Part shown: piece after piece, positions 32,589 to 49,814 of the stretch | How positions within the stretch are numbered: the stretch's first letter is position 1 | Layout: each line of letters begins with the position of its first letter | Source of the DNA: Candidatus Moanibacter sp. | GTDB lineage: Bacteria > Verrucomicrobiota > Verrucomicrobiia > Opitutales > UBA2987 | DNA: 64,000 bases | Assembly (NCBI GenBank): GCA_965215885.1 | Contig: CBDCEW010000083.1 | Span: 6,117 to 70,116 of the forward strand | Reading direction: 5' to 3' | Notes under the pieces: generated by a model | Databases searched by the model: none | Told to the model about the DNA's origin: nothing | Seen by the model: the letters and a program-made list of their open reading frames with translations, nothing else | Translations under genes and position numbers: made by a program

Positions 32589-33042
32589 GCACCGGCACAG
32601 TATGGAAAGGAGGCAAAACTGCAAACTTTACTTTACATACAATGCCAATACCAACTTTCTCCAGCTCCCTTCGCTTCTACTCAATTGCCACCAGAAATCA
32701 ACTCCCCGTTCAAAGCGCTTTTGTAACTGATTAATACTCAACAAGTTTCTAACTGAAAACAAACCTGCAGGAAAAGCTCTCTACCTCTAACGAACCCACA
32801 CACAACAATCGTTGAAACTCCATTCTGGCATACTATGTAATCAATAGAATCTTGCAAGTGCCTGAATAACATTTACTTTGGGTTCTCCAACCCAATTTCG
32901 TAATTATGGGTCTTGTGCCGGGGTGGAGCGCGTTTCTTGCTACACACCGGGTACCTCTACCTCGCTAAGATTCGGACGAGGCGTGGCAACCTTCTCTTGA
33001 CCTGTCTACTTTGCGTAGATTGTTTCCAGTGTGAAAGTCTCA

Positions 33043-34242
33043 ATGGACGCGGTTCTTTATAAAATTCCCGGCGTGGAATGGCAACGGCTAGGCGGTATGT
33101 CCTTGCTGGAGCGCAACCTCAGACTTCTCGACGCGGCCGGCGTAAAGAGAGCGCTTGTCCTGGTCCCTCCAGGTGACCGGGCACCGTCACTTTCGATACC
33201 ACGGCCATTACATCTCGATCGGCATACCTTCAACATCGCCGCGGATGAGAAGGATCTTCTATCTCTCCTACTCGATCTCGGCCGGCACGACCTCGGCACT
33301 TTCCTATTTTACAATGCGAATTTGCTCATCGATCCACGATTGATCGAAACTCTCCGAAACCGCAACGCACCCTGTTTATTGGTTGAAGGTCAGGCGGAAA
33401 GGTCCAATCCAGTATGGCAGGTCGGGCTGTTCGATCCTCAACACCTGGTAGCGTCCGAAGACTTACTCAACATAGCTGATAGGATGGGAACTGATGAAGT
33501 ATCGCATTACGACCCCGAAGTCAGGGGTGATGTTGTGCCCTATTGCGAGAAGATTGACAGTGCGGCTTCGGCCAGGCTCGGCTGGCGCCTTCTCATCAAA
33601 CGCGCCCAGAAAAGGCCCGGCGATTTTATCGAGAAATACGTCCATCCCGAAATTCAGAACTGGACGGTGAAAAGCATATGCAACACGCCCATCACTCCAA
33701 ACCAAATCAGCTTTCTAGTGGTTGTAAGTGCGTCTGCCGCAGCAGTTTTCTTCTACATCGGTTCTTTCTTCCTGGCCTGGTTTGCCGCCTTTGTTGCTAC
33801 CGTTCTGGACGGAGTCGACGGCAAACTCGCGCGAGTGAAGCTGATGACCTCAAAGGTCGGAAAACTTGAACACGTCTTCGACTATTTCTATGAAAATGCA
33901 TGGTACCTATGTCTGGCGGCACATTTAGCGCAGTGGCACGGATTTTTCGCCTGGAAAGTGGGTTTGGCTGTGACGGCATGCGACACGGCAAACAAAATAA
34001 TCGGTGGTCTTTTCGGGAAGTATACCGGCAAGACACTCGATGAGATGTCTCAATTTGACCGTGATTTTCGTCTCATCGGAGGGAGACGGAGCATCTACAT
34101 CTTCATCCTCCTTATCGGCTTCCTCTTCCAAGCGCCCTTTCCGGCATTTCAGGTGGTTCTCCTCTGGGCTGCATTTACCGTCACCGTACAAGCGTGCCGC
34201 GCCGTATACCACGCCCTTGAAACGAACTCGCCGGCAGCCTGA
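33043..34242 (+). CDS. IPCT/DIPPS-architecture protein: degenerate N-terminal nucleotidyltransferase-like domain plus CDP-alcohol phosphotransferase membrane domain
   Basis: ATG 33043. The N-terminal half resembles an NTP-transferase fold (LGGMSLLERNLRLLDAAGVKRALVLV) but lacks the G-x-G-x-R loop. The linker is ITPNQISFL. The membrane half carries LDGVDGKLARVKLMTSKVGKLEHVFDYFYE, a D-G-x2-A-R-x8-G motif. Confidence 0.75.
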   Translation: MDAVLYKIPGVEWQRLGGMSLLERNLRLLDAAGVKRALVLVPPGDRAPSLSIPRPLHLDRHTFNIAADEKDLLSLLLDLGRHDLGTFLFYNANLLIDPRLIETLRNRNAPCLLVEGQAERSNPVWQVGLFDPQHLVASEDLLNIADRMGTDEVSHYDPEVRGDVVPYCEKIDSAASARLGWRLLIKRAQKRPGDFIEKYVHPEIQNWTVKSICNTPITPNQISFLVVVSASAAAVFFYIGSFFLAWFAAFVATVLDGVDGKLARVKLMTSKVGKLEHVFDYFYENAWYLCLAAHLAQWHGFFAWKVGLAVTACDTANKIIGGLFGKYTGKTLDEMSQFDRDFRLIGGRRSIYIFILLIGFLFQAPFPAFQVVLLWAAFTVTVQACRAVYHALETNSPAA

Positions 34243-34304
34243 CGGGCTTCGCTTCCCAGAGATTTCATGCCAACCAACTGGGCGGCATCCCCAATCACCT
34301 GGGT

Positions 34305-35140
34305 GTCATTGCGAGGAGGAACGACGAAGCAATCCACGATTCCGATGTGCCTAAAAACGCTCCTCGGGAAATCGCGAGAAAACGATCACGATTAAGGCGC
34401 AGTGATCGATTCGGCTGAAAATGGCCCACATTCTTTCCCTGCGGTGATCGATCGTTGAAACACGAATTCTCGACCGAACCTCTACTCGATCAGCAGGCAC
34501 GACTCACTGACAAGCACAGTGGGATGGGGCGGAGCCCACAGTGGGAGAAATCCTAAGATTATTCGAAGGCCGAATGCCTGGATTGCTTCGTCATTCTTCC
34601 TCGCAATGATATGTTTTGCGTAGTGCAGCGAGCGGATGAATCATGACTTGGATTTGATCTAAATTAGGTCCGACGGATTTCCGGACTAGAGTCGTGCCGA
34701 ACCGACGATCTACCTAACGGAATTGTCTTGCCCCAAGACCATTAGGCTGGAAATTCGTGTCATTGCGAGAAGGAACGACGAAGCAATCCGCGATTCCGAT
34801 CAGCCGAAATGCTTCTCGGAAAATCGCGAGAAAACGATCATGATTAAGGAGCAGTGATCGATTCGGCTGAATATGGCCCATGTCCTTTCCTTGCGGTGCG
34901 CGATCGTTGAAACACGAATTCTCGACCGAACCTCTATTCGATCAGCAGGCACGACTCACTGACAAGCACAGTGGGATGGGGCGGAGCCCACAGTGGGAGA
35001 AATCTTAAGGCTATTCGTAGGCCGAATGCCTGGATTGCTTCGTCATTCTTCCTCGCAATGACAAGCTTCGTAGAGTGTGGCGAGTGGATGAATCATGACT
35101 TGAATTTGATCCGCCGTAAGTCCGACAGATTCCCAACCCG
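34305..35140. repeat. Tandem duplication (period 454 bp) of a ~385-bp unit whose first ~305 bp are bounded by inverted family-B modules
   Basis: Unit 1 (34305 to about 34690) and unit 2 (34759 to about 35140) align throughout with scattered substitutions. Inverted 31-bp modules lie at 34305-34335/34580-34609 and 34759-34789/35031-35061. Confidence 0.85.
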
Positions 35141-35311
35141 GACATTTCACACACATCGTAGGGAGGCCGCGTAGATTGCTGCGGATCAAGGCCTTTTCGC
35201 AGTCCGGCGGGCGACAGCGTGTTGGAACCCCCTGAGGTCGCCGGACAAGGGAAGGCTTTGAGGCGCAGTGAGATCCGCGGTCGCAGCAGATGGTTTGTGA
35301 AATGTTCGGGC
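35137..35311. repeat. Family-C MITE-like element, copy 1
   Basis: Termini are CCCGGACATTTCACACAC and GTGAAATGTTCGGGC (inverted). It aligns along its length with 49150-49335. Its last base abuts the stop codon of 35311..36039. Confidence 0.8.
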
Positions 35312-36039
35312 TAGAGGCTGCCGTGCATATTTTCCAGCAGGACGTTTTCCGCCTTTCGAATTGCATCGGGATCATCCACGTCTACCCAAAACCGACCACG
35401 AAACTCGGCAGCGTTAGCCCGACCCTCTTCCGCTAGAACGCGCACTCCGCCGCTCAGACTGAAATCGCCTCGCTCGATGATACTCTTATCAAGAGCCTCA
35501 AAAATGGCCGGACTGCACATGAAGATACCGGTATCGAATCCGTTGAAGTCGTCCAACCCTTTACCTATACTCCGTATCTTTCCCCCCTGCACCTTTACCC
35601 GGGTGACATCATCCATATCGACGGTAGAGTTCCGCGTATCCCGATCCACCGCCAGATTGATTTCATCCAAACGCAGAGGCACTTCGATCAACTCTCTCAA
35701 AGTACTGGAATCGAAAATGTGATCGGCCATAAGGAGTAAAAATGGTTCGTCAATATAGGCCTTCGCCTTCAAAACCGAGAGGCCGTTCTCCTTCTCCCAC
35801 TCTTCGTTGTATATTGGGGTGATGGGGACCTCAAGGCGCGCCGAAAGGTCTTCGAGAAACGCCGTTACGAGATCCTTGTTAAATCCTACGACGACGAAAA
35901 ATTCGCCTACTCCGGCATCCATCGCAGAACGGATTACTCGTTCGATGAGAGGAACGCCAAAGACCGGAATAAGGGGTTTGCTGTTACCCCGTAACTGTAA
36001 TCGACTCCCTTTTCCGGCCGCTATGATCAGACACTTCAT
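35311..36039 (-). CDS. NTP-transferase, inositol-1-phosphate cytidylyltransferase-like
   Basis: 242 aa with a canonical MKCLIIAAGKGSRL...SKPL loop. GLSVLKA, LLMADHIF and FWVDVDDPDAIRKAE match the IPCT/LicC-type pattern. Confidence 0.8.
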   Translation of the reverse strand: MKCLIIAAGKGSRLQLRGNSKPLIPVFGVPLIERVIRSAMDAGVGEFFVVVGFNKDLVTAFLEDLSARLEVPITPIYNEEWEKENGLSVLKAKAYIDEPFLLLMADHIFDSSTLRELIEVPLRLDEINLAVDRDTRNSTVDMDDVTRVKVQGGKIRSIGKGLDDFNGFDTGIFMCSPAIFEALDKSIIERGDFSLSGGVRVLAEEGRANAAEFRGRFWVDVDDPDAIRKAENVLLENMHGSL

Positions 36040-37150
36040 TCTTCGAACGACCCTCTTCCATTTCGATGATGAATCGCTCCATCATATGAAATGCCTCGTC
36101 ATCGGTGAATTGCCGAGGCGGATGTTTGCAGAAATACGCTGAAGGCGCGTAGAGAATGCCACCCTTACCGCAATCCAATGCCAGCTTCGCGCATCGGATG
36201 GCGTCAATTGCCACTCCCGCGGAGTTGGGGGAATCTTCCACGGAGAGTCGCACCTCGAGATTCATCGGCACATTGCCGAAAAGAAGCCCTTCCATCCGGA
36301 TAAACGCTACCTTGTTATCCTTCTGCCAGGGGACGTAGTCGCTCGGCCCGATATGGATGCTGTCTTCATCCATTCGACACGCTGTAACAGACTGCACGGC
36401 TTCTGTCTTGGAGATCTTTTTCGATGCTAACCGGCTTCTGCTGAGCATATTTAGAAAATCCGTGTTACCACCCGTGTTAAGCTGATAAGTACGCTCCAGC
36501 TTAACGCCCCGTTTTTTGAACAGGTCCGTCAACGTGCGATGCGCGATGGTTGCGCCCAACTGCGCTTTAATATCGTCGCCAATGATCGGAAGCCCCTTCT
36601 CTTCAAAGCGTTTCGCCCACTCCGGATCACTCGCAATAAAGACCGGCATGTTGTTGATGAAGGCCACATTCGCCTCTAACGCGCACCTGGCATAAAATCG
36701 GGTCGCCTCCTCCGATCCGACGGGTAGATAGTTCAATAGGATCTCCACTCCAGACTCTATGATCGCCTCGACAATCTCATCCTCCGTCAGCTCCGCTTCG
36801 CTTGACAGAACGAATGTCTGCCTCTCCTTGAAATCCTTCATGTGCTCGGCGAACCCGTCTATCAGCTTACCCATCTTTACCTGCACACCGGCTTTCGGTA
36901 AATCACCGCAGAATACAGTGGTGCAATTCGGCGCCTCAAAGATTGCTTCATTGACGTCTTTGCCGACTTTTCGAGCGTCGATGTCGAACGCAGCCACCAC
37001 TTCGATATCACTCGGCTTGTAGTCGCCGAGTTCCGGATGCATCAAGCCGATCGCATTCTCGAGGTTTTCCTCATTATAATAGTGGATTCCTTGAATCAGC
37101 GAACTCGCACAATTTCCGACTCCGACAATCGCAATTTTTATTTTGCTCAT
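35984..37150 (-). CDS. ino1: myo-Inositol-1-phosphate synthase (inositol-3-phosphate synthase)
   Basis: 388 aa with IAIVGVGNCASSLIQGIHYY, LNYLPVGSEEATRFYA, PVFIASDPEWAKRF, GDDIKAQLGATI, NTGGNTDFLNML, SKKISKTEAV and DSPNSAGVAIDAIRCAKLA. It is collinear with bacterial Ino1. The 3' end overlaps the next gene by 56 nt. Confidence 0.9.
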   Translation of the reverse strand: MSKIKIAIVGVGNCASSLIQGIHYYNEENLENAIGLMHPELGDYKPSDIEVVAAFDIDARKVGKDVNEAIFEAPNCTTVFCGDLPKAGVQVKMGKLIDGFAEHMKDFKERQTFVLSSEAELTEDEIVEAIIESGVEILLNYLPVGSEEATRFYARCALEANVAFINNMPVFIASDPEWAKRFEEKGLPIIGDDIKAQLGATIAHRTLTDLFKKRGVKLERTYQLNTGGNTDFLNMLSRSRLASKKISKTEAVQSVTACRMDEDSIHIGPSDYVPWQKDNKVAFIRMEGLLFGNVPMNLEVRLSVEDSPNSAGVAIDAIRCAKLALDCGKGGILYAPSAYFCKHPPRQFTDDEAFHMMERFIIEMEEGRSKNEVSDHSGRKRESITVTG

Positions 37151-37188
37151 ACCTAAATCTTTCCCTTAGCGGCTTTTATGTCAAGAGT

Positions 37189-39807
37189 TCAACGCTTCTT
37201 CCGCAGGAGGTAAAACGCCGGCAGCAAGAGCAGAGTAGTCGCCATCGTGAGGAGAACTCCGAGTGTTAGCAGCTTCCCCATACTTGCCGTTCCCTGATGG
37301 CTCAGGAAAATGAGAGTGCCGAAACTGAAAACCGTAGTAAGAGCGCTGAAAAGGACACCTCTCGCAGTGCTGGTCTTGAGGAAATCAGAATCCGAGTCAG
37401 CCAATTTTCGCATCCTGTGCACCATATGTATTCCATTGTCGACCCCGAGCCCAAGGAGGAGCGGCAACGCGATAATATTAGCGAAGTTGAATGGTATCTG
37501 TAAGAATACGGTAGAGGCTCCCGTGAATAGTCCAGCAACCAACAGGGGAAAGAGAACATAGAGAGAGTCCACAAAGTTTCGCAGGACAATAAAGAGCAAA
37601 ATCGAGATGAGAATTACCGCGCTGACAAAGGCCTGTTTAAACGAGCCGACCACGGCCCGGCCGGATTCGTAGGTAAAAATCGGACCGGAAGTAGCATCCG
37701 GCTCTACCGTTCTAACGTCCCACACAAATTTCTCGAGAGCGTCGTTATCTGAAATATCTTCTTCAGCAAAAACCTGAATACGAATCCCGCCATCTTCGCT
37801 CACCCACCGTTCGAACAGATCGCGCGGCAGATCTTTACGATTGAACGGCTCAGCCAAAAAAGCTTTCTTGAGCGTTCCCAAAGCAAACTGCAAGGTGCCC
37901 GTCAAACTTTTCTCAAGACTTTCCAGCCTCGGCTCACGCATTTCCACATTATTCGATTCGACGGCAGCGATAAAATCCTTCAACTGAACCGCCATCCGGG
38001 AAAGCTGCGCCCGCGCCGCAACTTCAGGGTATTCACTCAGTTTAGCCAGAAAATCTTCGATCTGCTCTATCTGTTCGTCCGAACTGGGCTTCGTCGTCTC
38101 GGGTAAATCGAGCAGAGAGGTTCCGATGATTAAATCCAGATCATCGATCAGGAGCATCTTTTCATCCTGATCCGTCGGCATGAAATCATGGATCGATACC
38201 ACCTTGTCGACCGTTTCCAGTTTCTCCAGGCGTTCGACAGTTTTTCGTGAATTCTCCTCATCATTTGCCAGCACAACTATGGTGGAGGGATGCTTTCCGC
38301 TGTCCCGGATTATGTCCATTATAGCCTCGATCGATTCCGTCTTCTGATCACGCAATTTAATTGGATCGAATTCAAACTTTGCCAGCGGAAGCGAAACTAG
38401 AGAACCAAAGACCAGCACGACGGCACACCATCGAATGAGGCGCGCGTGACGGTAGACGATTGATTTATTCTCAATTGAGGCACCCGCACCCTCGGCAGCC
38501 CCCGATTTCCTGCCTTTTTCGATTTGGAAGAGTCGAATTAACGCCGGTAGAACCGTCAGGCTTATTGCGAGACTGATGAACATACCCGTCCCGGAAATGA
38601 GCCCGAGTTCAGATACACCAGCGTAGGCGGTCGGAATAAATGAGTAAAAACCGATCGCGGTGGAGACCGTACACATCAAAAGCGATGGACCGATATCCAG
38701 GATACTCTCTCGTATCGCCTCTTCTTGGGAAATACCCTCTGCCACCAGCTCCTTGTAGCGCAGACAGAGGTGTATGGCATAATCGACGCCCATACCGATA
38801 TAGAGCACCGCAAAAGCGATGGAGATCAGGTTCAGGTGTCCAACCGCAAGAGTGGCGAATCCCGCCGTCAAAATGATACCCATGATGAGGGATAAGAGAG
38901 TCGCAAACACCATGGGAAGGGAGCGAAGTCCCGTAAACAGACAGAGGCACACCAATACCAGCGATGCGACACCGGCTCGGGTCGAACCCTCCATCAAACC
39001 AACCATCTCTTCGTGTCCCACTGCAGCGCCGCCCGTGGTGCGTACCCGAATACCCCATTTTCGCTCCAATTCCAGTTCATCTCCTATCGCCCCAATCACA
39101 TCGAGGGCTTCCCCCGCGGGAAATAGTCTGCTATAATCAAACCGAGGACGCACGATCACTAGCGTTCGACGATCAATGATATCCGATTCGCTGTCGCCCA
39201 TGACATCCTGCCACGACAACGCAAAGGGCTCTCCATTGAGATTGGCTGTAAGCGCCCGATTGATATTTCCAAATAGCGAATTCAGGTCTATATCGGGATC
39301 GTCATCGAGTAGCTCTACGGCCGTCTCGAGCATTTCAAAAAGCCCGCGTAGAGTCGGATCCTGGTACAGCGAAACCATGGCCGGCTGGGCCCGCGCCAGA
39401 TCGTTAGTCAGGTCTTCAAGTTCCTCGATATCCAGGAAAAGCAACCCGTTTTGCTCCAGAAAATCTCCTCCCCTCGGCAGATAGGTATCGATAAAAATCT
39501 CCTCTTTCTCACCCAACCGGTCCGCCAGAATGCGGGCCGCCTCTTTTGAGTATTCGGGTGTGTCCGCCTCCACCACGACGATGAGCAAACCGATATGCCT
39601 GGGAAAGGCTGCCTTATACTCAGCGTAGATCCGCCTGAATGGCAGATCGGTCGATATCATTTCGTTGGCGTCGGTATTGAAACCTAGATTTCGAACCACG
39701 TAAACCGCGGTTGCAGCAGTGAACAAAAGGCCGGCGATGACAACCCAAAGGGCATAATGATAGACCCCCTTACCGATCCAGGTCAGTGTTCGTGTTATTA
39801 TCCCCAT
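37189..39807 (-). CDS. hpnN: Hopanoid-associated RND/MMPL-type transporter
   Basis: 872 aa with two bundles of about six TM segments, large periplasmic loops and the RND pattern. It lies 4 nt downstream of hpnG in a hopanoid cluster. Confidence 0.85.
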   Translation of the reverse strand: MGIITRTLTWIGKGVYHYALWVVIAGLLFTAATAVYVVRNLGFNTDANEMISTDLPFRRIYAEYKAAFPRHIGLLIVVVEADTPEYSKEAARILADRLGEKEEIFIDTYLPRGGDFLEQNGLLFLDIEELEDLTNDLARAQPAMVSLYQDPTLRGLFEMLETAVELLDDDPDIDLNSLFGNINRALTANLNGEPFALSWQDVMGDSESDIIDRRTLVIVRPRFDYSRLFPAGEALDVIGAIGDELELERKWGIRVRTTGGAAVGHEEMVGLMEGSTRAGVASLVLVCLCLFTGLRSLPMVFATLLSLIMGIILTAGFATLAVGHLNLISIAFAVLYIGMGVDYAIHLCLRYKELVAEGISQEEAIRESILDIGPSLLMCTVSTAIGFYSFIPTAYAGVSELGLISGTGMFISLAISLTVLPALIRLFQIEKGRKSGAAEGAGASIENKSIVYRHARLIRWCAVVLVFGSLVSLPLAKFEFDPIKLRDQKTESIEAIMDIIRDSGKHPSTIVVLANDEENSRKTVERLEKLETVDKVVSIHDFMPTDQDEKMLLIDDLDLIIGTSLLDLPETTKPSSDEQIEQIEDFLAKLSEYPEVAARAQLSRMAVQLKDFIAAVESNNVEMREPRLESLEKSLTGTLQFALGTLKKAFLAEPFNRKDLPRDLFERWVSEDGGIRIQVFAEEDISDNDALEKFVWDVRTVEPDATSGPIFTYESGRAVVGSFKQAFVSAVILISILLFIVLRNFVDSLYVLFPLLVAGLFTGASTVFLQIPFNFANIIALPLLLGLGVDNGIHMVHRMRKLADSDSDFLKTSTARGVLFSALTTVFSFGTLIFLSHQGTASMGKLLTLGVLLTMATTLLLLPAFYLLRKKR

Positions 39808-39811
39808 TGTT

Positions 39812-40537
39812 TCATATACCTAAAAAGAAACTGTCCGACTCCCGCAAATGGTTCGCGACCCGCTTCAAAGTTTTCTCGGCCTCGCCAAACTGCCGGGCGA
39901 GTTTCATCAATGCCGGTAATTCGTAAGGACGAAACATCAATCGCAAAAACACTTTCAGTCTTCTCGCCGTCCCATGAGTTTTATCCATAGAGCTTTGAAC
40001 GCATTGCGGTATTCCTGAATCATATCCATCAGCAACCGCGCAGACGGCAAGAAACGGCTTCTTTCTCCTCTTCGCAACAGCGGCTGCCGGGGCGCTTTCC
40101 ATGTCCACGATATCCGCACCCCACCGCTCCCGCAGCAATCGTTTTCCCGCGGGTTGGGCGACTAGATTATCGCTGTGGATAAGGCACCCTCCATTCGGGG
40201 TAACCGATCCCGATAACCGATCGTAGAGCCGATTCCTCCATTCGGCATCGACCGTGAGCTCGTCCTGACCGTCTCTCATCAACCGCTCGGGCAACACAAG
40301 ATCGCCCGCCTTCAACCGGGGATTGAGGGACGCTGCACATCCCCATTTCATGAGCCCATCGGCTCCTGATTCCACCAGTGCCTCACTCGCCTTGTGCGCA
40401 TTTTCGGGCCCCATTCCGGAACAGAGACATATAATACCGGATTCGATCTCAATCAATTTTCCAGTGCGGCCATTCTCAGGCGTTAAACTTCCCAGCTCTT
40501 CAGGAAGGGCGACAACGATACCAAGCACAGTCTTCAC
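39812..40537 (-). CDS. hpnG: Hopanoid-associated nucleosidase/phosphorylase (PNP_UDP_1 family)
   Basis: 241 aa with LGIVVALPEE, the nucleosidase-type motif IVDMESAPAA and a 4-nt overlap with the shc stop. Confidence 0.75.
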   Translation of the reverse strand: MKTVLGIVVALPEELGSLTPENGRTGKLIEIESGIICLCSGMGPENAHKASEALVESGADGLMKWGCAASLNPRLKAGDLVLPERLMRDGQDELTVDAEWRNRLYDRLSGSVTPNGGCLIHSDNLVAQPAGKRLLRERWGADIVDMESAPAAAVAKRRKKPFLAVCAVADGYDSGIPQCVQSSMDKTHGTARRLKVFLRLMFRPYELPALMKLARQFGEAEKTLKRVANHLRESDSFFLGI

Positions 40538-42513
40538 GCATTCCCATCCCGCTTTTCAATTGTTTGCAACCGTCGATACCGGCTCAAAGCCCACAACGGG
40601 AAGAATTTATCGTACCCGTGATATTTCAGATAGAACACCCTGGGGAAACCCGGAGCCGTAAATCCTTCGTCCTCCCAAAGGCCACCGGCCGACTGTCTTT
40701 CCAGGAGAAAGCGAATTCCCCTTTCTACAGCCGAGGAGTTTACCTCTCCGCCCGCCAACAAACCGAGAACAGCCCAGGCAGTCTGAAAGGAATTACTCTG
40801 CTCGGCCCTTCCCCGTGCTTCCACCATGGTGTATGAGTCATTGCTTTCTCCCCACCCCCCATCTACGCGTTGCCTCTCTTTAAGCCAATCGATCGCCTTG
40901 CGAATTACGGGATCGTTCTTTCCGATTCCAGCCAGTTCAAATGCAATCAATACCGACCACGTGCCGTAGATATAGTTCGTGCCCCAGCGCCCGAACCAGG
41001 AACCATCCTCTTCCTGCTCCTCTCTCAGAAATTTGAGACAGGAATGTAGCACCGGCCGATAGGTTTCCCTTCCACCTTTCATGGCCGACAGAAACATCAG
41101 GCACCGCGCGCTCACGTCACTCGTAGGTGGATCAAGCAAAGCTCCGTGATCCGCAAATGGAATCTCGTTGAGATAGTAATAGCAGTTGTCAGCATCAAAC
41201 GCCGCAAAACCTCCGTTCTTCGATTGCATTCCGGCCAACCATTCCGCCGCCCTCTTCACCGGCTCCTCAAAATGATCCTCCTCGCTTCTCACCATGGCCA
41301 AAGCGGCCACCGCCGTGTCATCGAGATCCGGATAATGCGAGTTCCGAAATTGGAAGGGCCATCCTCCCCCGCGAAGGTTCGGCCGGTATTCGCTCCAGTC
41401 ACCCGGTTGATCGAGAAGCTGCAAACCGACAAGCCATTCCAGGGCACGGTTGACCGAGAGCATCATTTCCGGCTCTCGCCCTTCCAGAAGGGTGAGGCTC
41501 GCCAGCGCCGTATCCCACACCGGAGAAACACACGGCTGGCAGTAGGCTCTCTCCTCCTCGACCACAAGCAGTTTTCTAATCGCCAACCGTGCTGTCACAC
41601 AGTAGGGGTGGTCCGCCGCATAGCCGAGGCAGCGGAGCGCTTCGTAGGCATTGACCATGGCGGGAAATATTGCGCCCAACCCACTATCTCCATTCAGGCG
41701 TTCGACAAACCACTCTTCCGCCTTTTTTAAAGCGTGCCGCCGCAGAGAGCGTGGAATGACAGGTTCAAGAGTGCGCCCTAATTTATCAAAGCCGAGAAAA
41801 AGATAATTGAGGCACGAGCGAACCGGAAAATAGTCCCTCTCTTCTTCAGGCGCCATAGTAAAAAGCTCACGGATGGATATGTTCCTGGGATTTTTTGCTC
41901 TTGGCTTAAGGGTGCAGAGAATAATGAGAGGCACCATAACCGTTCGGGACCAATACGATATTTTGAGAAGGTGAAAGGGAAACCACCGGGGAAGAAGCAC
42001 GATTTCCACTGGGATAAACGGCACCCCTCTCCATGGAATCTGTTCAAATAATGCGAGCGCGATTCGCGTGAAAACGTTGCACCGGGCGGCGCCCCCCATC
42101 GCCAGAACCCTCTCACGCGCAATCGCCATGTGCGGCGCCTCCGGAAAGTCACCGATGAGCTTCAGGGCGAAATAAGCCTTTACGGTGCAGCTCACATTCG
42201 CTTCCCCGCCCGTATATAGTGGCCAACCTCCATCTTCCATCTGACGTTCCCTGATATAAACCCCAATCTTTGCCTCCAAATCTTCATCGATCTCATCCAG
42301 ATAGTGCATCATTAGCACATACTCTGCCGGGATGGTACAGTCGGCCTCCAATTCAAAACACCAGTACCCATCCGGATGTTGCAGCTCCAGCAAAGCGCGC
42401 TGGGCCCTCTCTATCGCCTCACCGATGAGCCCCAGCTGAGGCTCATCTCCCGCTAGTCCCGGCAAGCCGGGATCGGACTTTATGCTTCTTTCGAAGGATT
42501 TATTCGGTTTCAT
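40534..42513 (-). CDS. shc: Squalene-hopene cyclase
   Basis: 659 aa with the DxDDTA catalytic motif (YPDLDDTAVA) and multiple QW repeats (for example QxxDGGWG, QEEDGSWFGRWG, QSAGGLWED). Confidence 0.95.
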   Translation of the reverse strand: MKPNKSFERSIKSDPGLPGLAGDEPQLGLIGEAIERAQRALLELQHPDGYWCFELEADCTIPAEYVLMMHYLDEIDEDLEAKIGVYIRERQMEDGGWPLYTGGEANVSCTVKAYFALKLIGDFPEAPHMAIARERVLAMGGAARCNVFTRIALALFEQIPWRGVPFIPVEIVLLPRWFPFHLLKISYWSRTVMVPLIILCTLKPRAKNPRNISIRELFTMAPEEERDYFPVRSCLNYLFLGFDKLGRTLEPVIPRSLRRHALKKAEEWFVERLNGDSGLGAIFPAMVNAYEALRCLGYAADHPYCVTARLAIRKLLVVEEERAYCQPCVSPVWDTALASLTLLEGREPEMMLSVNRALEWLVGLQLLDQPGDWSEYRPNLRGGGWPFQFRNSHYPDLDDTAVAALAMVRSEEDHFEEPVKRAAEWLAGMQSKNGGFAAFDADNCYYYLNEIPFADHGALLDPPTSDVSARCLMFLSAMKGGRETYRPVLHSCLKFLREEQEEDGSWFGRWGTNYIYGTWSVLIAFELAGIGKNDPVIRKAIDWLKERQRVDGGWGESNDSYTMVEARGRAEQSNSFQTAWAVLGLLAGGEVNSSAVERGIRFLLERQSAGGLWEDEGFTAPGFPRVFYLKYHGYDKFFPLWALSRYRRLQTIEKRDGNA

Positions 42514-42621
42514 TCCGATCCCGGCCTGCCGGGACTAGCAATAAGAAAATGAATCCGCCATCGCCAAGTTCGATTTCAGTTGTCTCTACGAGCCTGTCGG
42601 CAAAGTCCGACTGGCTCCTAG

Positions 42622-43722
42622 CTAGGAATCAGCATGCGGTAACCGCATCCCGGCAAGGTAGAAAAGTGACTTAAGCAAGGTGTCGCTTGTGACCGTAATT
42701 TGGGTAGCAAGAATCGTTGCCTTCACGCTCCTGCGTGAGATCTTTACCTCGTTGCCGTGCGCAAATGCTCGATTCGTATTAATGTTTCGCAAGGTCAGCA
42801 CAGCCATACCGATATTCCAAAGGCAGAATTTCCTGATGCCGGTCTCTCTTTTTGGGACAAGCAAAGTGTAGGTGAGCGCCTTGTTCAGATGCCCATGGGC
42901 GACTCCTATGAGACATTCCAACCCTCTTGAGAAACCTTCACTTCTATGCACGCTCGCCAGATCCCTCAATTCGATACCCTCCCTGGAAAACACATCCCGT
43001 GGTAACCAGCATGCGGATCGTTTCTTATCATCCCAAATGTCCTTTAGTATATTGGTCATCTGTAAACCTTGTCCAAATGACACAGCCAGCTTCATCATTA
43101 CATCACGATTTTTCGCTGTCTCCTCTGAGTAATGGCAGAACAATCTCGTCAGCAATTCCCCGACCACCCCTGCCACGAAATAGCAGTACCGATCCATTTC
43201 CGATAGATCCTGGAGCCCATCTTCGCACCCTTCGCTTTGAAAGTGGGCCATTCCGTTTGCCATTATGCGGATGCAGTTCTCTAGAATTTCTCGCACTTCT
43301 CTATCAAATTCACAGCTGATGCGGATCACCCGGGGAGTCACCTGGATCAGCTCTCGCTCCTCGGGAATAGTCTCTTCCGAAAGGAGCGGAAACAGGTCAT
43401 CGGCAAACGCTTCAGCGCCATCGTTCCCGGCTACTACTCTGACAAATCGCTCACAATAATCCTGCTTTTCTTTCGCTTTTAAGGCCGGTTCGTCTTCGAT
43501 CGTATCGACGATGCGGCATAAGAGATAGGCGTTCGACACGACAAAGCGAAGCTCAGAGGGAAGCTGTGGAATCGTCAGGGCAAAGGTCCGCGATACACCC
43601 TCTAAGAGATGGGCCTGGAATTCCTCATCATTCAAATTGGCCAAGCCGGTCGGGGAAGCTGGGTCTTCAGAAAAGCAAATTCCTCTATCTGCTACCGGGC
43701 CAATCATATCAGGTAACTCCAA
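42622..43722 (-). CDS. sqs: Squalene synthase (farnesyl-diphosphate farnesyltransferase, single-enzyme SQS type)
   Basis: 366 aa. SRTFALTIPQLP, NAYLLCRIVDTIEDEP (DTxED) and GLQMTNILKDIWDDKKRSACWLPRDVF match SQS rather than the HpnC/HpnD pattern. Confidence 0.85.
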   Translation of the reverse strand: MELPDMIGPVADRGICFSEDPASPTGLANLNDEEFQAHLLEGVSRTFALTIPQLPSELRFVVSNAYLLCRIVDTIEDEPALKAKEKQDYCERFVRVVAGNDGAEAFADDLFPLLSEETIPEERELIQVTPRVIRISCEFDREVREILENCIRIMANGMAHFQSEGCEDGLQDLSEMDRYCYFVAGVVGELLTRLFCHYSEETAKNRDVMMKLAVSFGQGLQMTNILKDIWDDKKRSACWLPRDVFSREGIELRDLASVHRSEGFSRGLECLIGVAHGHLNKALTYTLLVPKRETGIRKFCLWNIGMAVLTLRNINTNRAFAHGNEVKISRRSVKATILATQITVTSDTLLKSLFYLAGMRLPHADS

Positions 43723-44066
43723 GGCGACGAGTAATTAAAAACGAGACCATTCACGAATACTGATGTCAAGCCAGGAATCTGTCCGCCCGCATTCGATTTT
43801 CGACTACGCTTATGATTACGATTGCGGATTGATCGGATATCCACTCGAATGTCGTCGTAATCGTAGTCGATCGTCGATTTCAGTCCTCCGAATTTCGTCT
43901 ACGATTATGACCTACGACAAAAGATCGAACACATTCCTCCTTCTCCCATCGTGACTCTCAATCGTGATCTGATGTCGAAGGGCTCTTCCTCATTTTGACA
44001 TTGACCGCTGGAGTGAGACGACCAATCATCAGAGGCACCGTATAAGCAGAATTAAAAAGGAATGCT

Positions 44067-45026
44067 ATGGATGTTGTTTTAGCACAACCACGTGGATTTT
44101 GCGCCGGAGTCGTCCGTGCCATCGAGATTGTTGAATCCGCCTTGGACATTTACGGACCCCCGGTGTATGTCCATCATGAGATTGTCCACAATCAACGTGT
44201 TGTTGAGGATCTCCGGTCTCGAGGAGCCATTTTTACAGATGAACTGGAGGACGTTCCACCGGGAGCGCCCCTGATTTTCAGCGCCCATGGTGTGGCCACA
44301 GCAAAGGTCGAAGAGGCAAAGAGTCGTGGCCTCAATACTATCGATGCGACCTGTCCCCTTGTTACGAAGGTCCACCTCCAGGTCGTTCGCCACGCCCGAC
44401 AGGCACGCGAAGTCATTCTCATCGGTCACGAACGGCATGTTGAGGTAAACGGCACTATCGGCCATTACGACAAGAGTTTTGGCGGCGATATCTATCTCGT
44501 CGAAACTGTCGATGATGTTGCCAAACTCAATGTCAAGAATCCGGAGGACCTCGCTTACGTTACGCAGACCACACTCTCCGTCGACGACACCAAGGATATT
44601 ATCGCGGCTCTCCGGGAGCGCTTTCCCGAAATCGTCGGTCCTCGCAAGGATGATATTTGCTACGCCACCCAGAATCGACAGTTGGCAGTTAAAGAAATGT
44701 CCGATGAGGTTGACACGCTTATCGTGGTCGGCGCACGCAATAGCTCAAATTCCAATCGCTTGCGCGAGGTCGGTGAACACAAGGGCTTGCGAGCCTATCT
44801 CGTACAGGACGCTGAAGATATGGAAGAATCGTGGTTCCAGGACGGTTCCCGCATAGGCGTCACGGCGGGCGCATCGGCCCCAGAGGTATTAGTCCAGGAG
44901 GTCCTTCAAAAACTTCAAGCATTGGGTCACACTGACATCAAACAGATGGAAGCCGAACCTGAGGGAGTCACCTTTCCACTTCCCTCTTCCTTGAGAGGAA
45001 AACTCTCCGAAACCGCGAACGCCTGA
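44067..45026 (+). CDS. ispH: 4-Hydroxy-3-methylbut-2-enyl diphosphate reductase
   Basis: 319 aa with [30 protein letters not shown] and ICYATQNRQ. Confidence 0.95.
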
Positions 45027-45500: not shown

Positions 45501-46664
45501 ATGGAAACGATAAGCCTGCTCCTTGCGGGAAGCGCCTTCATAATTTGGCTGGTCGTTCTCTGCCTGCCTTGGCAAGCGTGGCGAACCAACGAGGTCTTCT
45601 CGGTCGAAGGCGATCACAAGGCACGGAATATCGAGGATGTAACCGTACTCATTCCCGCCCGCAACGAGGAAGCGGTTATTGCGCAGACTATTGATTCGGT
45701 TATCAGTCAAGGCGACGGAATTCATGTCATCCTGATTGATGATCAATCAGACGACCGAACTGCCGGCCTCGCTGAATCTCGTGCCGGGAAGCACCTGACC
45801 ATCATTGACGGAGCTAACCTGCCCGATGGATGGATCGGCAAACTCTGGGCGCTGCAGCAAGCCTATATGCAGGTAAATACACCGTTTACGCTTCTTCTTG
45901 ATGCCGACATCGAACTCGGCGCCGACGTTATTGGCAAGCTGCGCGAGAAGATGAACCACGAAAATCTTCATTTTGTCTCTCTCATGGCCGCTCCCCCCAT
46001 GCAAAGCTTTTGGGAGCAACTTCTGATGCCCGCCTTTGTCTTCTTCTTTAAGCTCCTCTATCCATTCAGTTTGGTGAATTCCAAGACTTCGAGAGTTGCC
46101 GCGGCAGCGGGCGGCTGCGTTCTCGTGAAAACAGAAGTGCTCAAGGATATTGGCGGTTTCGCGTCCATCAGATCCGAACTCATCGACGATTGCGCCCTTG
46201 CTCGGCGCGCCAAATCTATGGGTTATACCATCTGGCTGGGACTCACAAGATCGGTGAGAAGTGCTCGACCCTATCCAAATCTCGGGGAAATCTGGAACAT
46301 GGTAGCGCGCACCGCCTATACTCAGCTACATTATTCTCCTGCCCTGCTGTTGCTCTGCACCGCCCTGATGACGGTCGCTTTTATCGTTCCGCTCATCATG
46401 CTCGCTAACTCCTCCGGGTTCGTTCAACTCCTCGGAGGTGCCGCATTCCTCGGAATGATCGTGTCAAATCTACCGACCCTCAGGTTCTACAGGCGCTCTC
46501 CCCTATGGTCGCTTCTTATGCCCTTGACCGCTTCACTTTATCTCGCCATGACCTGGACTTCGGCCTTACGTTTCTGGGGTGGCAATCGCTCCATCTGGAA
46601 GGGTAGAATCTACCAGAGAGTTGATAGTCAAAATGCAGACCGATCTATCCGGGAGATTTCGTGA
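45501..46664 (+). CDS. hpnB: Hopanoid-associated family-2 glycosyltransferase
   Basis: 387 aa with an N-terminal TM segment, VTVLIPARNEE...ILIDDQSDDRT (GT2 DxD region) and C-terminal TM segments. Its location is in the hpn cluster. Confidence 0.75.
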   Translation: METISLLLAGSAFIIWLVVLCLPWQAWRTNEVFSVEGDHKARNIEDVTVLIPARNEEAVIAQTIDSVISQGDGIHVILIDDQSDDRTAGLAESRAGKHLTIIDGANLPDGWIGKLWALQQAYMQVNTPFTLLLDADIELGADVIGKLREKMNHENLHFVSLMAAPPMQSFWEQLLMPAFVFFFKLLYPFSLVNSKTSRVAAAAGGCVLVKTEVLKDIGGFASIRSELIDDCALARRAKSMGYTIWLGLTRSVRSARPYPNLGEIWNMVARTAYTQLHYSPALLLLCTALMTVAFIVPLIMLANSSGFVQLLGGAAFLGMIVSNLPTLRFYRRSPLWSLLMPLTASLYLAMTWTSALRFWGGNRSIWKGRIYQRVDSQNADRSIREIS

Positions 46665-46971: not shown

Positions 46972-47661
46972 ATGCGTTTATCTAATACACTCATTCGTCG
47001 ACCGATAACGGGAGCCGGTATCGCTCGCGCCGGTCTTACTCTTTTGCTCATCGCTAACGTCCTTCCGGCATCCCAACCCGAGGCGAGACCCCTACCAGAG
47101 GCCAATCCCGAACCGAATCCCGAGGATGTAATCGACCACCTTCAGTCAGGCCTCATCGAGACGATGAAAGTGGGTCACGAAATCCTCTTCCCGGGACGCT
47201 ACGAGCGGTTGGAACCAATAATTCTGGAGACTCATAAGATTCCTTATCTCGCTCGGCTAACGATCGGCCGACACTGGAGGGAGATTGGCGATGAGGAACG
47301 TGAGCAGTTTCTCGATACATTCAGCAAGTTCATCATCTCCGCTTACGCGTCACGTTTTAAGAAATTCAAAGGCGAACGCTTCGAGCCCGTAAACGAACGC
47401 GAACTTAGGAAAGGAAGAATCCTTCTCGTTACTGACCTCTACAAAGGCAATGGGGATACCCTGCGGTTCAATTACGTCCTGAGTCGATTCGACGACAAGT
47501 GGCAGATTATCAACGTCATCGTAAAAGGTATTAGCGATGTAGCTCTTAAGCGCGCAGAATTTACTTCGATTATTGAGAGAGATGGATTCCCGGCCCTTCT
47601 CAGCCATATCGAAGAAAAAGTCGAAGAAATACGCAAAACACACGAAGAAGAGGGAACTTGA
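46972..47661 (+). CDS. hpnM: MlaC/Ttg2D-family lipid-binding protein (HpnM-like)
   Basis: 229 aa with a signal-like N-terminus. LARLTIGRHWREIGDEEREQFLDTFSKFIISAYASRF is typical of MlaC/Ttg2D. Confidence 0.75.
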   Translation: MRLSNTLIRRPITGAGIARAGLTLLLIANVLPASQPEARPLPEANPEPNPEDVIDHLQSGLIETMKVGHEILFPGRYERLEPIILETHKIPYLARLTIGRHWREIGDEEREQFLDTFSKFIISAYASRFKKFKGERFEPVNERELRKGRILLVTDLYKGNGDTLRFNYVLSRFDDKWQIINVIVKGISDVALKRAEFTSIIERDGFPALLSHIEEKVEEIRKTHEEEGT

Positions 47662-47810: not shown

Positions 47811-48635
47811 ATGATGTCCGACAGGCTCTCAGTTCGCACTAAACCCGTTTATCGGAGGCGACGTAAGCTGGTCTACCTCCCCATTCTGGCCGCCTTGCTC
47901 CTTACCGGCTGCGCTACAACGGAACAGATGCGGACGGATCGCGATCCATGGCAAAATCTCAACCGCCCGATCCACAATCTAAACCATGATCTCGATACCG
48001 CGCTCTTACGCCCGGTTGCCAAAGCATACATCAAGAATGTCCCGAAACCTTTGCAGCAGGGAATAGCGAATTTCTTCCATAACCTCGGCGAACCCAATGC
48101 CGCGATTAACGACCTGCTTCAGGGTAAGTCTAAAAGCGCCGTCCGGGTCATTCTTCGTTTCATCATGAATTCCACCCTGGGTATCGGTGGAATTTTCGAT
48201 CCCGCCTCAAAAAATGGCTTGAAGCGTCACAAGGAGGATTTTGGACAAACCCTGGCGGTGTGGGGCTTGGGAGAAGGACCCTACATGGTGCTTCCCATAA
48301 TGGGGCCGACCACTCTCCGTGATATTCCTTCCCGGGTGGTCAGTTCCGCCACCAATCCCTTCACTTACGTCAAGAAGAATAAGATAAGAATTCCTATGGG
48401 AATTGTCGGCACAATCAATAAACGAGCCGAGATTGAAGGCTCCATAAAGGAAGTCGATCAGTCGGCTATGGACCGTTACATTTTTGTGAGGGAAGCCTAC
48501 CGTGATACGCGTCAGTTCAACATCTACGATGGTGACCCGCCTATCGAATTGTTCCTCGGAGACGACATGTTTCTCGACGATGAAGAATTCCTCGATGAGG
48601 ACAATGATTCAGGGAACGAGGCCGCTCCGGAATAA
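47811..48635 (+). CDS. mlaA: MlaA/VacJ-family outer-membrane lipoprotein
   Basis: 274 aa with lipobox LLLTGCAT. DPWQNLNRPIHNLNHDLD, ANFFHNLGEP and LGIGGIFDPA match the VacJ pattern. Confidence 0.85.
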   Translation: MMSDRLSVRTKPVYRRRRKLVYLPILAALLLTGCATTEQMRTDRDPWQNLNRPIHNLNHDLDTALLRPVAKAYIKNVPKPLQQGIANFFHNLGEPNAAINDLLQGKSKSAVRVILRFIMNSTLGIGGIFDPASKNGLKRHKEDFGQTLAVWGLGEGPYMVLPIMGPTTLRDIPSRVVSSATNPFTYVKKNKIRIPMGIVGTINKRAEIEGSIKEVDQSAMDRYIFVREAYRDTRQFNIYDGDPPIELFLGDDMFLDDEEFLDEDNDSGNEAAPE

Positions 48636-49421: not shown

Positions 49422-49814
49422 CTAAAGGTGGCCTAACTCTTCACTCTCCCGCTTTATCGTCTCTGCCTCTTCTCGACGCTCCGAATCCTTCTTATTCATC
49501 CACGTCTGCCACGATCTCCCATCCGCGGTATCCTTACCCGTGAAAGCGATCGTTCGAATATCGCTGTAGAGTATTTTCAGCGGCTCATCGCTCCCTCTGA
49601 TCAGCATCTCCACGCAGGGAGGAGCACCGGAACTGTTACGGTTGTATAGATAGCCTTCCACCGTTTTCCCATCGTCAAGGCCGATCGTCACATCTCCCCG
49701 GTAATCAAAGGACTCTTCTATCGCTTCGGCCCGCTCCGCTTCATTCCGGGGAACGAACTCCATTCCTTGAAGATCCTTCGAACTTTTGGGAGTCGTCTTT
49801 ACTTCAGAGGGCAT
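49422..49814 (-). CDS. Hypothetical protein translationally coupled to hpnH
   Basis: 130-aa ORF whose ATG (49814-49812) overlaps the hpnH TGA (49816-49814) as ATGA. No family was recognised. Confidence 0.55.
   Translation of the reverse strand: MPSEVKTTPKSSKDLQGMEFVPRNEAERAEAIEESFDYRGDVTIGLDDGKTVEGYLYNRNSSGAPPCVEMLIRGSDEPLKILYSDIRTIAFTGKDTADGRSWQTWMNKKDSERREEAETIKRESEELGHL

Follow-up and report, generated by a model that had tools for sequence, protein, structure and literature searches.

Described hopanoid clusters and CDP-inositol pathways

Hopanoids rank among the major membrane lipids of bacteria and serve as key biomarkers in geology, and their polar head groups set both membrane behaviour and the molecular fossils that are left behind. 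To our knowledge, all known hopanoid tailoring involves adenosine-derived, amino or glucosamine-derived groups, and we know of no described hopanoid (hpn) gene cluster that contains myo-inositol-3-phosphate synthase (MIPS), the cytidylyltransferase IPCT or an enzyme resembling DIPPS, the phosphotransferase of the di-myo-inositol-phosphate (DIP) pathway. Here we describe a stretch of 64,000 nt (hereafter the window) from the verrucomicrobial Candidatus Moanibacter sp. (assembly GCA_965215885.1, contig CBDCEW010000083.1, positions 6,117 to 70,116), which, judging from its gene content, carries a hopanoid cluster with a predicted CDP-inositol branch that uses a diverged DIPPS-type enzyme.

Canonical hpn clusters combine tailoring enzymes (HpnH, G, O, I, J, K, P and R) with transport functions (HpnN, HpnM and the candidates HpnL, HpnS and HpnT). 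MIPS, IPCT and DIPPS-like enzymes go unmentioned in two recent surveys of hpn neighbourhoods (10.1101/2025.07.29.667474; 2025 Alphaproteobacteria survey). The first, a preprint covering genes within 20 open reading frames (ORFs) of the squalene-hopene cyclase gene shc, puts forward hpnL, hpnM, hpnS (MlaA) and hpnT (DUF2147) as candidates, and neither inositol nor CDP appears anywhere in its text. Its gene-numbering table lists 'CDP-alcohol phosphatidyltransferase', without comment, as an unlabelled family 6 with 1409 occurrences against 3662 squalene-hopene cyclase (SHC) entries, together with further unlabelled shc neighbours annotated as glycerol-1-phosphate dehydrogenase (641) and as nucleotidyl-transferase families (535 and 336); in the rows examined, those of Burkholderia and Brevibacillus, family 6 does not occur. 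Branches that activate other head groups may lie near shc in other taxa. In the per-taxon conservation table of the same preprint, the values for its 21 Opitutales and 26 Desulfobacteria genomes are zero or close to it, and these lineages were therefore hardly sampled there. The Alphaproteobacteria survey lists the functions of hpnA, hpnB, hpnL and hpnM as unknown, with no further candidate genes evident near the clusters.

On the inositol side, the bifunctional IPCT/DIPPS of the DIP pathway (Archaeoglobus fulgidus AF0263, PDB 4MND, family NF041135) consists of a nucleotidyltransferase domain atop a six-helix CDP-alcohol phosphotransferase, the fold also predicted for the membrane enzyme of the window. 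A putative, unconfirmed CDP-inositol route has been described in Bacteroidota, with phosphatidylinositol and inositol-phosphoceramide as proposed products and an LPG-synthase-like gene noted as a neighbour (Heaver 2022, PMC9246714). Phosphatidylinositol-phosphate synthases (PIPS; PgsA1, BT_1523) belong to the same superfamily and also build an inositol head group, but they use CDP-diacylglycerol and inositol phosphate and need no IPCT. In the searchable literature we found no paper containing both squalene-hopene cyclase and inositol-1-phosphate synthase and nothing relevant on hopanoids with inositol phosphate, neither such a lipid nor such a linkage. A preliminary description of the window, made from the DNA alone, had mentioned both an inositol-lipid proposal in Bacteroidota and the absence of inositol phosphate from hopanoid tailoring, and on both points it agrees with what has been published.

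The window resembles canonical hpn clusters in that SHC, HpnH, HpnN, HpnB and HpnM exceed curated cut-offs and HpnG, IspH and MlaA occupy their usual positions. With the Bacteroidota cluster it shares adjacent genes for MIPS, an NTP-transferase and a CDP-alcohol phosphotransferase (33043-37150) and a CDP-inositol intermediate as proposed there, and in relatives these genes are joined by ones for a HAD hydrolase and an LPG-synthase-like membrane protein. The two differ, in a comparison made by gene content alone, in that the Bacteroidota concerned are hopanoid-free and their cluster includes the HAD gene, whereas the genes of the window stand in a hopanoid operon with no HAD. With the IPCT/DIPPS system of the DIP pathway it has the same partner genes (MIPS and IPCT) and CDP-inositol as the likely donor in common; a difference is that the organisms here are mesophilic bacteria.

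Gene content of the hopanoid cluster

The central gene run and the phosphotransferase that faces it comprise the following features (bits refer to profile matches).

33043..34242, plus strand: 'E-type' CDP-alcohol phosphotransferase, 399 aa from the ATG (CDP-OH_P_transf PF01066, 29.6 bits)
35311..36039, minus strand: stand-alone IPCT-like cytidylyltransferase, 242 aa (IPCT half of NF041135, 149.3 bits)
35984..37150, minus strand: myo-inositol-3-phosphate synthase, MIPS/ino1 (Inos-1-P_synth PF01658, 122.6 bits)
37189..39807, minus strand: HpnN, RND-type hopanoid transporter (TIGR03480, 945.1 bits, cut-off 751.85)
39812..40537, minus strand: HpnG-like hopanoid-associated phosphorylase (best match TIGR03468, 160.9 bits, cut-off 187.1; PNP_UDP_1)
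40534..42513, minus strand: squalene-hopene cyclase, shc (TIGR01507, 822.3 bits, cut-off 431.1; both SQHop_cyclase domains)
42622..43722, minus strand: squalene synthase (eukaryote-type SQS), first gene of the run (SQS_PSY PF00494, 184.7 bits)

The preliminary description had presented six minus-strand genes as an operon-like run. All six ORFs were recovered in the ORF listing at exactly its coordinates, and the gaps along sqs, shc, hpnG, hpnN, ino1 and the NTP-transferase gene were recomputed as 108, -4, 4, 38 and -56 nt, identical to its values. Its gene names are backed by Pfam and NCBIfam profile searches, HpnG being a best match under the cut-off, and the convergent CDP-alcohol phosphotransferase indeed lies beyond a repeat-filled gap of 1.07 kb, inside which are two tandem repeats resembling miniature inverted-repeat transposable elements (MITEs). 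The best NCBIfam match of sqs is TIGR01559 squalene synthase, under its cut-off, and the gene keeps the same position in the related loci L088-L091 (L numbers denote loci and P numbers homologous proteins in our survey). The hpnG gene shares 4 nt with shc, and in every close relative it is found between shc and hpnN/hpnA. A promoter and terminator scan of 32500-44200 returned counts no higher than in shuffled sequence; the same scan found no minus-strand terminator-like site in any gap within the operon, which is consistent with an operon and otherwise uninformative.

The hopanoid cluster is larger than first reported and continues to the right of sqs.

44067..45026, plus strand: IspH, isoprenoid precursor supply, divergent from sqs (NF002188, 481 bits, cut-off 420; PF02401)
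45501..46664, plus strand: HpnB, hopene-associated glycosyltransferase (TIGR03469, 391.9 bits, cut-off 379.25)
46972..47661, plus strand: HpnM, MlaC-like periplasmic lipid carrier (TIGR03481, 185.2 bits, cut-off 160.1; PF05494)
47811..48635, plus strand: MlaA-like outer-membrane lipoprotein (PF04333, 235 bits)
49814..50851, minus strand: HpnH, adenosylhopane synthase, which commits to C35 extended hopanoids (TIGR03470, 534.3 bits, cut-off 225; Radical_SAM and DUF3463)

With IspH, HpnB, HpnM, the MlaA-like protein and HpnH on this side, the organism thus has the genes for making extended C35 hopanoids and for exporting them. By annotation, the window carries a complete cluster for extended-hopanoid synthesis and export, namely IspH, SQS, SHC, HpnH, HpnG, HpnB, HpnN, HpnM and MlaA. 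The name 'HpnS' for the MlaA-like lipoprotein comes from the 2025-26 preprint (10.1101/2025.07.29.667474).

MIPS and the IPCT-like cytidylyltransferase

The MIPS encoded by ino1 scores 450 bits against TIGR03450, under the mycothiol-type cut-off, and is 72-81% identical to the MIPS of the syntenic loci L005, L006 and L012. The 242-aa NTP-transferase that follows was assigned with profile models, as the preliminary description had proposed, and proved to be IPCT-like. It matches the IPCT half of NF041135 with 149 bits, the next NCBIfam family following at 93; the equivalog cut-off of 580 bits is out of reach for a single-domain bacterial protein because the model covers the two-domain protein of Thermococcales. 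The A. fulgidus IPCT structures 2XME and 4MND are its top PDB matches (E 2e-25, within the best three), the next unrelated families following at 1e-10 or weaker, and the protein aligns end to end with 2XME. The nucleotide loop G-x-G-x-R...K-P (AAGxGxRL...KP) is intact, the protein beginning KCLIIAAGKGSRL...SKPL. Identity reaches 56-62% with the IPCT domains of the bifunctional proteins P0225 and P0228, in which a canonical CDP-alcohol phosphotransferase domain is fused, and some of the relatives in this range are annotated as CDP-inositol inositolphosphotransferases. The start of the gene overlaps the end of ino1 by 56 nt, an overlap found unchanged in L084, L088 and L090. We conclude that the 242-aa protein is an IPCT, an activity predicted from these relationships.

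The same observations bear on a scheme in which the roles are reversed, the HpnG product ribosylhopane-1-phosphate being converted to CDP-ribosylhopane by the NTP-transferase and the phosphotransferase coupling this lipid donor to inositol phosphate, a hopanoid counterpart of the way in which bacteria make phosphatidylinositol-phosphate from CDP-diacylglycerol. The idea is our own and draws on the membership of HpnG in the nucleoside phosphorylase family; NTP-transferases of this superfamily act on sugar-1-phosphates, and those of the Desulfobacterota module described below are not specifically IPCT-like and have a HAD phosphatase alongside. The NTP-transferase of the window, however, has characterised IPCTs and the IPCT domains of bifunctional enzymes, specifically, as its closest relatives and is translationally coupled to MIPS, and the module is widespread without hopanoid genes. 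We regard reversed roles as very improbable.

The E-type phosphotransferase

The earliest possible start of the convergent phosphotransferase is a GTG at 33031, and the ATG at 33043 is the better start because homologues begin with MQAVLF there. An exact look-up of the protein returned no existing record. The best NCBIfam match of the 399-aa protein is the DIPPS half of NF041135, at 58.9 bits against a cut-off of 580, while PIPS families stay far under their cut-offs (NF045883, 26.7 against 170; NF052561, 23.1 against 350). An AlphaFold2 model (pLDDT 89.4, pTM 0.84) has the bifunctional IPCT-DIPPS 4MND as its top Foldseek match over the full length (437 columns), followed by AF2299 (4O6M/4O6N; TM-score 0.77 normalised to the target), a CDP-alcohol phosphotransferase with a cytosolic N-terminal domain and no assigned physiological substrate, which has a similar extramembrane domain and transmembrane core. 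Stand-alone nucleotidyltransferases including IPCT match the N-terminal domain of the model. AF2299 differs in being archaeal, in having the canonical aspartate motif and in having no known link to isoprenoid cyclase genes; its motif is the one common to the paralogues that accompany genes of the present type (see below).

Aligned with the bifunctional homologues P0089, P0094 and P0114, the phosphotransferase has a 12-column deletion exactly at the GxGxR/KP loop and a second deletion of ~22 residues in the N-terminal domain, and Pfam finds no NTP-transferase domain in it. By this alignment, the N-terminal domain is a pseudo-enzyme remnant of an IPCT-like domain. Because it has lost the loop and the ~22 residues, IPCT activity in the window would come from the separate gene. 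The catalytic motif reads DGVDGKLAR-x8-G-x2-E-x3-D, with a glutamate, residue 288 when counted from the GTG at 33031, that is invariant in the family, and does not fit the canonical D-x2-D-G-x2-A-R-x8-G-x3-D-x3-D. We refer to the G-x2-E-x3-D variant as 'E-type' and to the canonical G-x3-D-x3-D as 'D-type'. The two-domain IPCT/DIPPS architecture that the preliminary description had assigned to 33043-34242 is thus borne out by sequence and, in the model, real at fold level, whereas the nucleotide loop is gone, the motif is a variant and the score lies far under the equivalog cut-off.

A profile of the family collected 466 clusters (50% identity) at E <=1e-30 among 1.84 billion representatives. 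The E-type homologues P0089, P0094 and P0114 have an intact fused NTP-transferase domain that is 40% identical to the IPCT of the window, and such fused, live domains are Rosetta-stone evidence in support of a soluble CDP-alcohol as the likely E-type donor. In 53 of 164 loci (for example L012 13230-14495, L072 8590-9894 and L031 18516-19712) the E-type gene has a D-type paralogue alongside, which suggests a two-transferase system; the window has the E-type gene only.

Resemblance to DIPPS raises the possibility of a bacterial DIP pathway, which would make a soluble stress solute and would stand in the hopanoid operon through a shared response to osmotic, pressure or temperature stress. MIPS, IPCT and a DIPPS-like enzyme form the canonical DIP gene set, the membrane enzyme comes closest to DIPPS both by family score and by fold, one homologue, in Ca. 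Moanabacter tarae, is annotated 'Bifunctional IPC transferase and DIPP synthase', and IPCT/DIPPS genes of cold hadal Thaumarchaeota have been interpreted as genes for osmolytes or piezolytes. Yet the membrane enzyme reaches a tenth of the equivalog cut-off, its third catalytic aspartate is replaced and shifted while canonical D-type bifunctional enzymes exist separately in bacteria, and no DIPP phosphatase is evident in the window. The steady partners of the enzyme, a flippase-domain protein, RND, outer-membrane efflux protein (OEP) and MlaC lipid exporters and hopanoid genes, would be needless for a cytoplasmic solute. These lipid flippase, exporter and hopanoid partners argue for a lipid acceptor rather than a solute, unlike in IPCT/DIPPS, and a DIP pathway appears improbable to us.

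Conserved synteny with hopanoid genes

We surveyed the gene neighbourhoods of phosphotransferase homologues at 80 genome and 80 metagenome loci and on contigs of the nearest relatives, clustering or searching the neighbour genes. The clade of the window consists of Opitutales-like contigs in which the phosphotransferase is 47-60% and the IPCT 68-89% identical. L088/L089 (IPCT 89% identical) contain SQS, SHC, HpnG, HpnN, MIPS, IPCT and the convergent phosphotransferase, followed beyond the latter by DXS, a small radical-SAM protein, DUF2141 and an HpnL-like protein. In L084, L092 and L012 the phosphotransferase faces, on the opposite strand, radical-SAM, DXS, IPCT, MIPS, HpnA, HpnN, HpnG and SHC; L090 has HpnM, HpnB, HpnH, IspH / SQS, SHC, HpnG, HpnA, MIPS, IPCT, DXS; and in the Moanabacter-type loci L001/L003 the phosphotransferase adjoins HpnN-HpnG.

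E-type homologues in Desulfobacterota (L016, L023, L031, L044, L060) are 30-35% identical and lie in a conserved supercluster of different order: HpnK HpnI HpnJ / HpnA HpnH [MIPS] HAD NTP-transferase 279-aa-protein aminotransferase GFO-oxidoreductase, and then phosphotransferase HpnL-like DUF2147 OEP HpnN-like-RND HpnM-like. Curated models identify HpnH (532 bits), HpnJ (758), HpnK (331) and HpnA (490) in this cluster. Two phosphotransferase paralogues start 2 nt after shc in L072/L147, and L033 combines the phosphotransferase with HpnL-like, NTP-transferase, HpnH, HpnJ, HpnB, HpnG and SHC. The shc/hpnN-ino1 synteny for which the preliminary description had suggested a survey is thus kept in the closest relatives, and it recurs in a second phylum with other gene orders.

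Of 79 genome loci, 15 have a hallmark hopanoid gene within 10 kb, as do 8 of 80 metagenome loci and 7 of the 21 metagenome loci of at least 12 kb. Hopanoid-linked loci account for 15 of the 44 enzyme clusters at 60% identity and fall in both major clades at 45%, and the binomial P is ~8e-6 with a generous 5% background, for loci that are not phylogenetically independent. Absence of any functional link, the inositol genes having come to lie beside the hopanoid operon by chance when a genome rich in transposons was rearranged, is hard to reconcile with this enrichment, which is far beyond a plausible background, with the independent arrangements in Desulfobacterota, or with the same order and the same 56-nt overlap persisting in relatives whose IPCT is 68-89% identical. 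Such an origin could draw on the several transposases and MITE-like repeats of the window, on a probable unclassified mobile insertion directly left of the phosphotransferase, and on insertion sequence (IS) elements inside the cluster in relatives too. It was already disfavoured and strikes us as highly unlikely; on the conserved gene order, chance juxtaposition of inositol and hopanoid genes may be regarded as excluded for practical purposes.

Inside the hopanoid clusters of Desulfobacterota, a conserved block of HAD, NTP-transferase, 279-aa protein, class-III aminotransferase and GFO-family oxidoreductase precedes the E-type gene in L016, L019, L023, L031, L044, L050, L060, L120, L129 and L159. 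The 279-aa protein, which has no Pfam family, gives a faint tubulin-tyrosine-ligase/ATP-grasp match, and the best family of the GFO oxidoreductase is inositol 2-dehydrogenase (weak, 73 bits). The predicted functions of this block fit the synthesis of an activated aminocyclitol phosphate head group. A reading of the aminotransferase as HpnO and of the oxidoreductase as the missing ribosylhopane reductase of Desulfobacterota was considered and rejected as the principal interpretation because both genes travel with the phosphotransferase in hopanoid-free loci such as L018, L036, L063, L070, L110 and L118.

The module outside hopanoid clusters

Across the 80 genome loci the commonest neighbour is an LPG_synthase_TM protein with an HpnL-like flippase domain, found in 45. 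The L012 copy passes the HpnL model (276 bits against 196) and the L031 copy fails it (114 bits). Radical-SAM neighbours occur in 32 loci, in a cluster that mixes true HpnH with a small non-HpnH family of ~315-350 aa. Other neighbours are an NTP-transferase (29), a GFO-family oxidoreductase (26), a class-III aminotransferase (21) and an HpnN-like RND transporter (21), and, more rarely, the Pfam-less 279-aa protein (19), a HAD hydrolase (18) and an outer-membrane efflux protein (12). These parts suggest a widespread, uncharacterised module that may build, flip and export a phospho-cyclitol lipid head group.

The small radical-SAM family is tightly linked to the E-type gene (L087 2506-3474, L012 6588-7631, L088 14714-15661), its end overlapping the E-type start by 1 nt in L087. 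It is not HpnH, and its best curated matches, to Tes and MoaA cores, are weak. Neighbour clusters c10, c13, c14, c18, c19 and c21, which look acyl-CoA synthetase-, NusA-, PurN-, PurM-, GreA- and RimP-like, were rejected as module members and taken as lineage synteny because a single myxobacterial-type lineage accounts for all of them.

In the window the module is at its shortest, consisting of MIPS, IPCT and the E-type enzyme. A search of its 64 kb found no HpnL, small radical-SAM, DXS, HpnA, HpnJ/K, D-type paralogue, class-III aminotransferase or 279-aa family. For HAD, tblastn with the HAD protein of related loci gave no match in the window, and none was present among the window ORFs scanned.

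Locus L073 belongs to a cultured alphaproteobacterium, Sandaracinobacteroides sayramensis RS1-74 (NZ_JAKLSQ010000024.1). The E-type phosphotransferase, MIPS and NTP-transferase genes are consecutive there on one strand, with a D-type paralogue nearby and no hopanoid genes in the flank, and the organism is tractable for finding the product of the module.

Because ~80% of the homologues stand outside hopanoid clusters, a lipid other than a hopanoid is a serious alternative as acceptor. The products could be ordinary inositol phospholipids made by Kennedy-type transfer, from CDP-inositol and diacylglycerol or ceramide to phosphatidylinositol or inositol-phosphoceramide, with the genes standing beside hopanoid genes through co-regulation and joint export to the outer membrane. 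Loci lacking hopanoid genes within 10 kb nevertheless keep the HpnL-like, radical-SAM, HAD and NTP-transferase partners, and L073 has its row of phosphotransferase, MIPS and NTP-transferase with a hopanoid-free flank. What such a route leaves unaccounted for is the position of MIPS and IPCT inside the hopanoid operon, between hpnN/hpnA and a second DXS copy, in at least five distinct relatives, the paralogues directly after shc in L072/L147, and a hopanoid linkage that has been kept or re-created with different gene orders in two phyla; the Bacteroides route is moreover itself unconfirmed and was compared with the window by gene content alone. We consider an ordinary inositol phospholipid unlikely, though the least so of the alternatives to a hopanoid product.

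Proposed pathway and its weighing

Our proposal of a hopanoid product runs as follows. MIPS would convert glucose-6-phosphate to inositol-3-phosphate, and the translationally coupled stand-alone IPCT would combine inositol phosphate with CTP to give CDP-inositol, as its closest characterised relatives and its coupling to MIPS indicate. The convergent E-type enzyme, working at the cytoplasmic face of the inner membrane, would then take phospho-inositol from CDP-inositol and attach it to a lipid alcohol, a lipid being suggested by the flippase and exporter partners of the enzyme. The most likely acceptor would be an extended hopanoid, bacteriohopanetetrol or ribosylhopane, through its polyol side chain, for which the recurrent embedding in hpn operons is the sole evidence. 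The resulting phospho-inositol hopanoid would be moved to the outer membrane by HpnN/HpnM/MlaA, and in relatives the HpnL-like flippase-domain protein would act before these.

The gene identities, the fold, the lost nucleotide loop, the variant motif and the recurring synteny are established; we infer that CDP-inositol is the donor, a lipid the acceptor and a hopanoid that lipid, and our confidence falls along this series. A chain from MIPS through IPCT to a soluble CDP-alcohol donor and a membrane lipid alcohol as acceptor is likely. The whole chain, with an extended hopanoid as the acceptor, is a close call that we place slightly below even. A broader proposal, in which extended hopanoids receive a phospho-inositol head group by Kennedy-type transfer, those of Desulfobacterota a phospho-aminocyclitol, and the E-type enzyme with the HpnL-like protein forms a module for building and flipping the head group, is tentative and somewhat doubtful.

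Several observations weigh against the hopanoid as acceptor. We know of no phosphorylated hopanoid. Some 80% of homologous loci have no hopanoid gene within 10 kb, and hopanoid-free flanks occur even in the clade of the window (the Methylomirabilota-type L002, L004, L009 and L087). The phosphotransferase is convergent to the hopanoid genes and is therefore not co-transcribed with them, and the window has none of the HpnL-like, small radical-SAM and DXS genes that stand beside the enzyme in its closest relatives. The synteny counts are inflated by shared ancestry, two clades alone remaining at 45% identity, and they depend on hallmark hopanoid genes called by identity thresholds, with curated hidden Markov models applied in spot checks only. 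Kennedy-type chemistry is also what has been proposed for the cluster in the hopanoid-free Bacteroides vulgatus/Prevotella (Heaver 2022, PMC9246714).

The coupling of hopanoid and CDP-inositol genes that the preliminary description had put forward is thus real at the genomic level, with the reservation that the phosphotransferase, with its degenerate IPCT domain, variant motif and score far under the equivalog cut-off, is not a bona fide IPCT/DIPPS and lies outside the operon, and most homologues outside hopanoid clusters. The profile assignments and the synteny survey it had proposed, like every other computable check among its suggestions, favoured its interpretation, which is partly supported.

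If a phospho-inositol hopanoid is made, it would establish a new class of lipids, be the first composite hopanoid that is phosphorylated, and probably escape standard extraction and derivatisation. HpnL, which has been without a function since it was named, would gain a testable one, the logic by which a widespread, uncharacterised group of CDP-alcohol phosphotransferases selects its substrates would be defined, and a diagnostic gene set would become available for uncultured Verrucomicrobiota and Desulfobacterota. If the acceptor is instead diacylglycerol or ceramide, the unconfirmed CDP-inositol route to inositol lipids would extend far beyond Bacteroidota, and inositol lipids and hopanoids would be in tight genetic coupling, recalling the partnership of sterols and sphingolipids in eukaryotes.

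Repeats, hairpin and other features of the window

The convergent gap between the phosphotransferase and the IPCT contains a duplicated repeat.

34304-34609 and 34758-35063 (no strand assigned): two tandem MITE-like elements in the convergent intergenic gap, 306 bp each, with 30-33-nt terminal inverted repeats

The gap (34243-35310) contains a tandem duplication with ~454-nt spacing, the copies being 88-92% identical (92% for the 306-bp elements). The repeat also occurs singly at 36-65, 16958-16983 and 48713-48742, one of these copies just after the MlaA-like gene; shuffled sequence gave zero matches. The repeat has no exact match across all 171 fetched loci, and no Rfam family matched in the gap. 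In L088, the closest relative on a long contig, the same two convergent genes are only ~250 nt apart and a single 70-nt stretch of the gap is 79% identical to the repeat. With so short a gap there, the MITE-like repeats are a recent insertion that does not belong to the system.

At 30052-32726, three minus-strand ORFs in succession (250, 383 and 324 aa) have no Pfam or NCBIfam family and give only weak matches to transposase-type helix-turn-helix domains and to ResT/TelK. They stand where the closest relatives have DXS, radical-SAM, DUF2141 and HpnL. Synteny breaks at this segment, probably through an unclassified mobile insertion, and a rearrangement has probably moved those four genes elsewhere. 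Two transposase genes lie at 6823-9048 and 19117-20709 (Transposase_29, DDE_Tnp_1). IS110- and Tn5-type insertions occur inside the hopanoid cluster of the relatives L088 and L081, and these genomes are rich in mobile elements.

A second structural feature lies at the start of shc.

42452..42539, minus strand: strong hairpin straddling the annotated shc start codon (42513), 26-bp arms at 42452-42477 and 42514-42539, 96% complementary

Its RNA fold has an energy of -103.5 kcal/mol (z = -8.3), no further copy occurs elsewhere in the window, and an Rfam scan of the region returned two sub-threshold plant-miRNA matches only, both caused by this hairpin. The shc ORF encodes 659 aa, against 638-650 aa in relatives (9-21 codons longer). 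With the hairpin over its start and a length beyond that of its relatives, the true gap between sqs and shc may therefore exceed 108 nt. There are two readings: a true start farther downstream, which would leave the hairpin in the intergenic stretch between sqs and shc, or a start site that is occluded by the hairpin.

Farther from the cluster, a run of GFO/IDH/MocA oxidoreductases and xylose-isomerase-like TIM-barrel proteins at 4596-13716 suggests inositol or sugar catabolism, and a DhaK/DhaL dihydroxyacetone kinase pair lies nearer to it at 28086-29698. Oxidoreductase, TIM-barrel and kinase genes of this kind are typical of Verrucomicrobiota and Planctomycetota. A 326-aa ORF at 53842-54822 joins nucleotidyltransferase and HEPN domains, a toxin-antitoxin-like pairing.

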